34,514 nt of DNA from Escherichia phage Chuche. How positions within the stretch are numbered: the stretch's first letter is position 1; each line of letters opens with the position of its first letter. This document shows positions 8,246 to 8,720 of the stretch, piece by piece. The notes below the pieces were generated by a model. That model saw nothing but the letters and a program-made list of their open reading frames with translations, searched no databases and was not told the origin of the DNA. The DNA is taken from the sequence record PP925824.1; one strand, written 5' to 3'. Made by a program: the position numbers and the translations under genes.

Positions 8246-8274
8246 TTGCCGGAGTAACAAAAAAGCGATAGATT
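8246..8274 (+). promoter_or_regulatory. Candidate sigma70 promoter for the hok-like transcript
   Basis: ttgccg (8246-8251), 17-bp spacer, tagatt (8269-8274); predicted start near 8281 coincides with the 5' element gggtgcctt that is complementary to 8624-8632. Confidence 0.35.
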
Positions 8275-8426
8275 ACGCGCGGGTGCCTTTCGGCTGATGG
8301 TCGGAGGGAATACCCGAAGGCCAGATGTGGAAAGGCCCCGGAAAACACTTTTGTTTAACCGAGGCCCTAACCGTCTACCCTAAGCAAGTGATAGGTTAGC
8401 GCCTCCCCGAAAAAGGAGCAAGCGCT

Positions 8427-8567
8427 ATGTCGCAAAAATCGCTTACGGCCATCACGTTCTGCGTGACGGCAATCCTCATCATCTGGATGCTACACGGTTC
8501 GCTGTGTGAAATACGGATGAGCTTCTGGGGAGCGGAGTTTGCGGCGTTCTTACAGTGTAAGCAGTAA
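8427..8567 (+). CDS. hok: Hok/Gef-family type I toxin (small membrane peptide)
   Basis: 46-aa ORF absent from the ORF track: MSQKSLTAITFCVTAILIIWMLHGSLCEIRMSFWGAEFAAFLQCKQ; strong SD aaggag 8 nt upstream; single TM helix then SLCEIR and E-AAF motifs typical of Hok/Gef/RelF. Confidence 0.65.
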   Translation: MSQKSLTAITFCVTAILIIWMLHGSLCEIRMSFWGAEFAAFLQCKQ

Positions 8568-8656
8568 GGAAACCGCGACGGGGGAGCAATCCCCCGTCAA
8601 TCGGTTGCCAGGGTAAGGTCGATAAGGCACCCTATCTCACAGACATGAACAACAAG

Positions 8657-8688
8657 CCCGCAGCGTAAAAACTGCGGGTTTTCTTTTT
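8657..8688 (+). terminator. Rho-independent terminator (end of hok-like transcript / ogr read-through)
   Basis: Stem cccgcag / ctgcggg with 8-nt loop followed by ttttcttttt. Confidence 0.6.
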
Positions 8689-8720
8689 GGTATCCCCATC
8701 CATAAGCAATAGGCATAACA

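Follow-up and report, generated by a model that had tools for sequence, protein, structure and literature searches.

A probable hok/sok-type toxin–antitoxin locus of Hok cluster 72 in the ogr–com interval of a P2-like phage

The hok/sok locus (parB) of plasmid R1 runs from a promoter through a translational activator element (tac), an upstream complementary box (ucb), a GAGG(C) motif, the Sok target hairpin, an antisense promoter with a 17-nt spacer, the dcb element and the hok Shine–Dalgarno sequence (SD) to hok itself, a fold-back inhibitory element (fbi) and a terminator, and gives an mRNA of ~400 nt and an antisense RNA of ~60 nt. In this system a rearrangement from tac/fbi pairing to tac/ucb and SD/dcb pairing has been described, and translation of hok depends on that of mok, Hok being no longer toxic once the mok start is mutated or mok is stopped early (Le Rhun 2022, PMC9841398). 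The hokW-sokW locus of the Stx2 prophage Sp5 / 933W is a functioning type I toxin–antitoxin module, which aids lysis and phage release upon induction (Takada et al. 2021, PMC8621323). The subject of this report is a locus at positions 8246–8690 of a 34,514-nt stretch of Escherichia phage Chuche (PP925824.1; the whole stretch that was analysed is referred to as the window). It is very probably a hok/sok-type type I toxin–antitoxin module of Hok cluster 72, carried as cargo by a P2-like phage between ogr and a com–methylase pair, and the analysis shows peptide family membership, fold-back pairing and conservation of the RNA elements, and also that a Mok open reading frame (ORF) is lacking. The locus has the same layout as R1 hok/sok, and its predicted RNAs are of similar length. 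It differs in lying in a phage instead of on a plasmid, in encoding a toxin of 46 aa, highly diverged from the 52-aa R1 Hok, in an AGGTTA-to-hok AUG distance that is 10 nt shorter, and in having neither a mok start after GAGGC nor a conserved overlapping leader ORF.

Cluster 72 has recently been covered, at the level of the peptide, by the Hok survey of Escalera-Maurer, Le Rhun et al. (bioRxiv 10.1101/2025.08.07.668861), which describes hok as enriched in prophages, lists cluster 72 (peptides 72_1621 and 72_1589) as a high-abundance cluster and, by its own account, deliberately left Mok, Sok and the mRNA elements unanalysed; for cluster 72 all three are worked out in the present analysis. As given in Table S2 of the survey, peptide 72_1621 is residue-for-residue identical to the window peptide, with a few synonymous base differences between the two coding sequences (CDS). 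The same source records the cloning of 72_1621 as pAZ3-72_1621 (LRP137) for toxicity assays, and reports that 42 of 45 Hok homologues were toxic upon arabinose induction, the exceptions it names being 19_179, 60_1482 and 69_1540, and not 72_1621. Since 72_1621 was cloned and assayed in the survey, the inducible-expression experiment proposed in an earlier note on this DNA, which had been made from the letters alone, has effectively been done for an identical peptide.

Loci equivalent to the window hok are annotated in public records. Going by these records and by the catalogue of the survey, the locus is already known: annotation of homologous loci is routine, and an identical peptide is on the survey's list and has been assayed. 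The earlier note, which had called the locus unannotated, therefore overrated its novelty, as it belongs to a routinely annotated Hok subfamily that, according to the survey, has already been tested experimentally. As a gene finding the present work adds little, given that pipelines already annotate the subfamily and that the survey's list covers the identical peptide. Its use is as an annotation fix, namely to call the CDS in this phage and to add the antisense RNA and mRNA elements that Rfam misses because the subfamily scores below the gathering threshold.

Toxin peptide and predicted sense transcript

The toxin gene (Hok cluster 72, peptide 1621) is the ATG-initiated ORF at 8427–8567 on the plus strand, the 46-aa product of which is MSQKSLTAITFCVTAILIIWMLHGSLCEIRMSFWGAEFAAFLQCKQ. 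It is preceded by the SD AAGGAG (8413–8418, plus strand), 8 nt 5′ of the ATG; among 36 distinct copies of the locus, 71–96% identical to the window and used throughout as the conservation sample, the SD is AAGGAG in 34 and AGGAGG in two. The peptide matches Pfam HOK_GEF (PF01848) with 29.9 bits (E = 4e-7, gathering cut-off 22, profile positions 5–42 of 42) and PHROG 251 (‘MokW-like host killing’) with 80.6 bits (E = 1e-22). Residues 6–22 (LTAITFCVTAILIIWML) are hydrophobic, and L26-C27-E28 and E37 are also present. In the sequence logo of the Hok survey the conserved positions are C16, T18, L30, C31, E32 and E41 (bioRxiv 10.1101/2025.08.07.668861), and C12, T14, L26, C27, E28 and E37 of the window peptide have the same spacing as these logo positions. 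The earlier note had described a 46-aa ORF with a strong SD, encoding one transmembrane helix followed by the Hok/Gef signature, and had suggested the PF01848 hidden Markov model search as a check; the description stands, and the search comes out above the cut-off.

The toxin gene has a dN/dS of 0.03–0.5 among relatives chosen by DNA similarity. Between the window and one such relative (L006) there are 13 synonymous and 2 non-synonymous changes, and between two lambdoid copies (L002 and L008) 7 synonymous and none non-synonymous, with all of these loci being mok-less. The test was confined to DNA-selected loci, as peptide-selected IMG/VR loci would make it circular. These ratios point to purifying selection on the toxin peptide.

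Upstream of the toxin gene, the plus strand at 8281–8440 gives a full-length match to Rfam RF01794 (‘sok’) with 45.7 bits (E = 1e-8), model position 1 falling on 8281, and other cluster-72 loci score 42–51 bits. RF01794 is a model of the hok leader, because on an R1-type control, a canonical plasmid locus that encodes a Hok 100% identical to that of R1, it again matches the hok-sense strand, beginning at the mRNA's known 5′ end and stopping at the hok AUG (87.2 bits). The position of the model start therefore supports a transcription start at 8281. A hok promoter (8246–8274, plus strand), predicted from alignments of 9 and 36 family loci, would consist of a −35 TTGCCG (8246–8251), a 17-nt spacer and a −10 TAGATT (8269–8274), and ends 6 nt 5′ of the conserved GGGTGCC. 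Of the 36 copies, 25 have TTGCCG as their −35, and the −10 occurs as TAGATT, TAGAAT, TACATT, TAAATT or TACAGT, with T1, A2 and T6 always retained. At the far end lies an intrinsic terminator (8654–8688, plus strand), retained in most family members, which consists of a hairpin at 8654–8681 (10-bp stem with six GC pairs, 8-nt loop) and a TCTTTTT tail, the T-tail reaching ~8690. The predicted full-length hok-like mRNA (8281–8688, plus strand) would be ~408 nt long and comprise a 146-nt leader, the hok CDS and a 3′ untranslated region (UTR) with fbi and the terminator.

The two ends of this RNA are complementary. At 8281–8289, GGGTGCCTT is the exact reverse complement of AAGGCACCC at 8624–8632, a match of 9 bp that extends no further. 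The first of these is tac (GGGUGCCUU, plus strand), invariant in 35 of the 36 copies, and the second, also on the plus strand, is fbi, a conserved island within a variable 3′ UTR. Counting both strands, the 9-mer occurs three times in the 34.5-kb window, two of these being the tac/fbi pair, versus 0.25 occurrences expected from shuffles. Four internal single-base variants of fbi were found (GGCATCC, GGTACCC, GGCACTC and GGCACCT), all of them C-to-U changes opposite a G of tac, so that G.U pairing is kept. When 8281–8690 is folded, the minimum free energy (MFE) is −175.8 kcal/mol, versus −134.5 for shuffles (z = −7.25), and 8281–8289 is paired with 8624–8632 in both the MFE and the centroid structure, with P(unpaired) 0.02 for both elements. 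The pairing is present in the full-length folds of all 36 family members.

Much of this had been anticipated in the earlier note, which read from the letters the 9-bp complementarity, a terminator just after its 3′ half and a transcript of about 400 nt with its 5′ end at 8281, and which asked for the folding of 8281–8690. The sequence features are borne out and the predicted transcript agrees with that length and 5′ end, and the Pfam, PHROG 251 and Rfam leader matches together with the conserved fold-back uphold its general reading of the locus as a Hok-type type I toxin locus.

A predicted Sok-like antisense RNA

The earlier note had left the antisense promoter without a position. It can now be placed because it is homologous to the experimentally mutated −10 of sokW. 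In Sp5 the wild type is TAGGTTAGCCTC and the sokW ‘promoter-less’ primer is CCGGCTCGCCTC, the Sok strand changing from TAACCT to GAGCCG; this ‘pro-less’ primer, YO-421, destroys the TAACCT −10, and the construct lost antitoxin activity (Takada 2021, PMC8621323). The −10 of the window is identical and at the homologous position, with AGGTTAG at 8393–8399 as in Sp5. The predicted Sok-like promoter (8393–8421, minus strand) would therefore comprise a −35 TTGCTC (complement of 8416–8421), a 17-nt spacer and a −10 TAACCT (complement of 8393–8398). The −35/−10 spacing is alike in the window, in Sp5 (−35 TTGCCT) and in the R1-type locus (−35 TTGCGC, −10 TATCCT), and the motifs are well kept in the family, AGGTTA in 35 and GAGCAA in 33 of the 36 copies.

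Transcription from this promoter would head leftwards from a start near 8385–8386, 7 nt downstream of the −10. The predicted Sok-like antisense RNA (8322–8386, minus strand; ~55–65 nt) has a single-stranded 5′ tail, a long hairpin and a short U tail, and thus shares the tail-and-hairpin architecture of Sok. Its fold as a 65-nt RNA, at −23.9 kcal/mol (z = −2.85), leaves the 5′ tail free and has a 10+5-bp hairpin with a UUUCC tail behind it. Within the region it would cover, the 27-nt interval between GAGGC and AGGTTA (8366–8392) is hypervariable, with 14 versions among the 36 copies between invariant flanks, as one would expect where a cis-antisense pair has its recognition stretch.

A leader without mok and a candidate RNA switch

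As the earlier note had reported, no Mok-like overlapping ORF with a start is present. The mok-equivalent frame of the window lacks an ATG, GTG or TTG start, has a TAA at 8381–8383 and is open solely at 8384–8509; the triplet 7 nt after GAGGC is GTC, versus ATG in Sp5 and in the R1-type locus. The 36 copies share no conserved leader ORF, and 12 of the 14 Sok-target variants are without one, an open mok-frame ORF with a start being found in the other two only, from a TTG at −46 or an ATG at −103. The TTG at −46 was rejected as a mok start, as it is confined to one clade (13 variants) and stands 16 nt from GAGG. A substitute leader ORF beginning at the conserved ATG 8325 or GTG 8327 was likewise ruled out, since its end point and frame vary freely: in the 36 copies the ORF from ATG 8325 has its end at various points between −101 and +131, and uses each of the three frames. 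Because no leader ORF is conserved and the ends and frames of the one from ATG 8325 vary, the leader is conserved as RNA and not as coding sequence.

In Sp5 itself the leader ATG, 7 nt after GAGGC, opens orf74 (70 aa, ‘gef homolog’; L093 715–927), which is in frame with hokW and would thus encode Hok with an N-terminal extension, not a Mok in another frame. In an R1-type plasmid variant (L004 444–659), too, the leader ATG and hok share a frame; this variant, tried as a mok control, was set aside as not clean. The frame relation between ‘mok’ and hok is therefore not uniform across the family.

The other leader elements are in place. On the plus strand, ucb (AAGGCCCC, 8332–8339) is invariant in all 36 copies; GAGGC (8361–8365), the counterpart of the mok SD of R1 and Sp5 but with no start codon after it, is conserved in 35; and dcb, which coincides with the anti-SD GCCUC(C) (8401–8406, dcb core 8401–8405), is GCCTCT or GCCTCC in every copy, a C/U variation that pairs with G in the family alignment. 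In the full-length fold, GAGGC pairs with the ucb region (8335–8339) and GCCUCC with the GGAG of the hok SD. When the RNA is truncated at or before 8615, tac (8281–8289) pairs instead with ucb (8332–8339) and GAGGC with dcb (8401–8405), and the hok SD loses its GCCUC partner. This predicted full-length-to-truncated switch is the same as that of R1 hok/sok.

Both structures were laid on a family alignment of 35 sequences, a sample limited to mobile elements of E. coli and Citrobacter. In the full-length structure 94.8% of cells are paired versus 37–45% when it is slid along the alignment, with 21 pairs changed on both sides versus 4–11; in the truncated structure 95.8% are paired, again versus 37–45%, with 19 pairs changed on both sides versus 3–12. 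As both structures were taken from the fold of the window itself, the share of paired cells is tilted in their favour; this bias touches the compensatory counts and helix-level changes less, such as those at 6 of 14 pairs in the long-range helix between leader and 3′ UTR and at 4 of 9 in the 3′ hairpin. For both structures, none of 500 shuffles came up to the values observed. Across the family, 99.3% of the tac/ucb helix is paired.

Because dcb overlaps the hok anti-SD, the switch could gate the hok SD directly. Cluster 72 may thus be a naturally mok-less branch of hok/sok in which dcb (GCCUC) doubles as the hok anti-SD, the change from tac/fbi to tac/ucb controls hok translation directly, and Sok, besides RNase III cleavage, forces the anti-SD back onto the SD; this is a tentative proposal, which we rate a little short of an even chance. 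Family-wide folding agrees with such a mok-independent switch in direction, but only modestly in size. At full length the SD/anti-SD pairing is found in 36 of 36 copies, with a mean P(SD unpaired) of 0.01; after truncation it is found in 19 of 36, with a mean of 0.08 (0.18 in the window, maximum 0.45); and when the Sok-complementary stretch of the truncated RNA is blocked, it returns in all 36, with a mean of 0.01.

In the scheme that we infer for transcript ends, 3′ processing and antisense action, a weak constitutive promoter (TTGCCG-17-TAGATT) would give a stable ~408-nt mRNA beginning at G 8281. In the full-length RNA tac would pair with fbi, ucb would hold GAGGC and GCCUCC would cover the hok SD, and the molecule would be neither translated nor accessible to the antisense RNA. 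Slow 3′ trimming would then remove fbi, allowing tac to pair with ucb and GAGGC with GCCUC (dcb) and loosening the hok SD. A short, unstable antisense RNA from TTGCTC-17-TAACCT, complementary to ~8322–8386, would bind the trimmed mRNA and thereby presumably lead to cleavage by RNase III and to renewed sequestration of the SD, with GCCUCC brought back onto it. On loss of the antisense RNA, the 46-aa Hok would be made, insert into the inner membrane and kill or lyse the cell. For the phage we infer only candidate roles, which include prophage retention, an aid to lysis as for hokW-sokW in Sp5, and exclusion of other phages.

Several results weigh against this account. By consensus both predicted promoters are weak, with 6–7 of 12 matches, and a generic consensus promoter scan called neither the hok promoter (7 of 12) nor the Sok-like one. 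The window leader scores below the RF01794 gathering threshold (45.7 versus 59 bits), and the peptide's scores against the NCBIfam models (HokA equivalog and Hok family) fall well short of the cut-offs, NF007290 with 34 versus 89 bits and NF007279 with 21.6 versus 73. Variation in the tac/fbi helix is one-sided (G.U) only, with zero double compensatory changes. As regards the switch, truncation raises SD accessibility little (mean P(unpaired) from 0.01 to 0.08), and the combination of tac/ucb and GAGGC/dcb pairing is the MFE structure in just 21–23 of the 36 truncated folds at the chosen cut point. The NCBIfam scores also bear on classification: as they lie far under the HokA and Hok-family cut-offs, the peptide is of neither the HokA nor the R1/HokB type and belongs to a separate Hok subfamily.

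The missing mok start could also mean that the locus is a decaying, translationally silent hok relic, in which Hok is never made and the fossil is kept by phage hitch-hiking. Pedersen and Gerdes are said to have found in 1999 that many chromosomal hok loci of E. coli K-12 are inactivated, which would fit such a relic. So would the mok frame of the window, without ATG, GTG or TTG and with its TAA at 8381–8383, and the loss of Hok toxicity in R1 when the mok start is mutated or mok is prematurely stopped (PMC9841398). Silence of this kind is nevertheless improbable here. The lack of a conserved leader ORF characterises the subfamily as a whole (12 of 14 Sok-target variants have none) and is no lesion of the window copy, and the absence of mok does not amount to decay, because toxin dN/dS among DNA-selected loci is 0.03–0.5, with, for example, 13 versus 2 changes for the window and L006 and 7 versus 0 for L002 and L008, all of them mok-less. 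All RNA elements and both promoters are, moreover, nearly invariant across copies that are 71–96% identical, and the subfamily is abundant, with 287 IMG/VR contigs and a presence in no fewer than 1,011 genomes of E. coli.

A hok/sok-type module thus remains the preferred reading, and against it a non-Hok small membrane peptide (for example holin-like, or a moron) with a coincidental 5′/3′ complementarity in a GC-rich intergenic region is effectively refuted: short hydrophobic peptides do yield weak profile scores, and the NCBIfam and Rfam results lie under their cut-offs, but the Pfam match is above gathering, the full-length Rfam leader alignment begins exactly at the predicted 5′ end, the tac/fbi 9-mer is expected 0.25 times per window, all 36 relatives retain its pairing, their substitutions being of a kind that leaves it intact, and the peptide stands in a curated Hok catalogue that reports it as toxic.

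What interest remains in the hok/sok-type module lies in a subfamily that keeps every R1 RNA element without a conserved mok, while its peptide is still under purifying selection. If the proposal of a mok-independent switch is true, mok translational coupling would not be a universal requirement of hok/sok systems, and cluster 72 would offer a compact natural variant, simpler than the classic three-gene circuit, for studying an RNA switch that alone gates toxin synthesis.

Phage context and distribution

Positions 1,040–12,000 of the window are 93–95% identical to Xuanwuvirus P884B11 and phage P88, and for positions 11,000–34,514 the matches are to prophage regions of E. coli in which P2-family capsid, portal, terminase and replication endonuclease genes are annotated. 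The window is the genome of a P2-family (Peduoviridae, Xuanwuvirus/P88-like) phage or prophage. The locus lies, as the earlier note had it, between ogr and com: Pfam places an Ogr_Delta zinc finger at 7976–8236 and Zn_ribbon_Com at 8794–9000, both on the plus strand, and the hok candidate sits within the 557-bp gap between them. An N6_N4 DNA methylase (8945–9736, plus strand) and a phage integrase (10048–11067, minus strand) follow.

The same ogr–hok–com–methylase order is found at 95–98% DNA identity in P2-like prophages of E. coli and in P88/Xuanwuvirus; in E. coli O145 RM8988, for example, ogr, Hok/Gef, Com and a DNA methyltransferase are arranged as in the window, and the RefSeq record of phage P88 carries the label ‘MokW-like host killing; hok/gef family protein’. 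Of 5,426 complete E. coli genomes, at least 1,011 carry homologous DNA according to megablast and ~1,680 according to blastn; PGAP labels it ‘Hok/Gef family protein’. The best DNA match is 98.1% identical and none is fully identical, so the window carries a new allele. Public records annotate the cluster-72 CDS only and never an antisense RNA; pipelines leave the RNA out because cluster-72 leaders score below the RF01794 gathering threshold.

In cluster-72 relatives the ORF is always 141 nt long. It is found in P2-like prophages, adjoining ogr; in lambdoid and Stx phages, adjoining lom or between J and a tail-fibre gene; and in islands adjoining an rpmE paralogue. A DNA-pattern scan of ~100,000 species-representative genomes gave three matches, one Citrobacter metagenome-assembled genome and two probably mis-binned contigs; cluster 72 therefore appears to be a narrow subfamily of Escherichia/Citrobacter mobile elements. 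Within these it is abundant, with 287 IMG/VR contigs, and a peptide scan of IMG/VR added little diversity, its 80 loci all encoding an identical peptide. Many IMG/VR prophage contigs (L012–L022 and others) end exactly 3 nt past the hok ORF, which probably means that prophage boundaries there were cut at gene ends, dropping the hok 3′ UTR with fbi and the terminator.

Stx-converting lambdoid phages can carry two hok loci. One is hokW-sokW, which encodes a HokD-like peptide of 51 aa (L093, VT2-Sakai/Sp5, 772–927), listed in the survey as entry 35_712 of the HokD cluster and thus of another subfamily than the window peptide. The other is a cluster-72 locus that adjoins lom, is ~82% identical to the window (L002, phage Lyz12581Vzw, 1670–1810) and often goes unannotated in Stx-phage records. 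The possibility that this 82%-identical match is the published hokW-sokW was considered and ruled out: the primers of Takada are absent from both the window and the match, HokW has 51 aa and belongs to cluster 35, and the match is the second, cluster-72 locus.

The ogr-proximal end of such P2-like phages seems to take variable cargo. A close relative, the prophage of E. coli O145 RM8988, has a PIN-domain gene between the tail gene D region and ogr (L003 1585–2655), and the window has no PIN-domain gene at the equivalent position. On the other side of the hok locus, com (8794–9000) and the start of the N6/N4 DNA methyltransferase gene (8945–9736) overlap by 56 nt. This pair, which PGAP likewise annotates in E. 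coli, has the arrangement of Mu com-mom, though Mom's place is taken by an ordinary DNA methylase. All three copies of GATCGAT in the window (8721, 8739 and 8752) lie within 38 bp just 5′ of com; their total is not above chance (3 versus 3.8 expected), and it is their clustering that is striking. The cluster overlaps both a small palindrome or terminator-like hairpin (8737–8757) and the sole consensus-like sigma-70 site of the region (8741–8768), and is reminiscent of the Dam-methylation/OxyR control of the Mu mom promoter.

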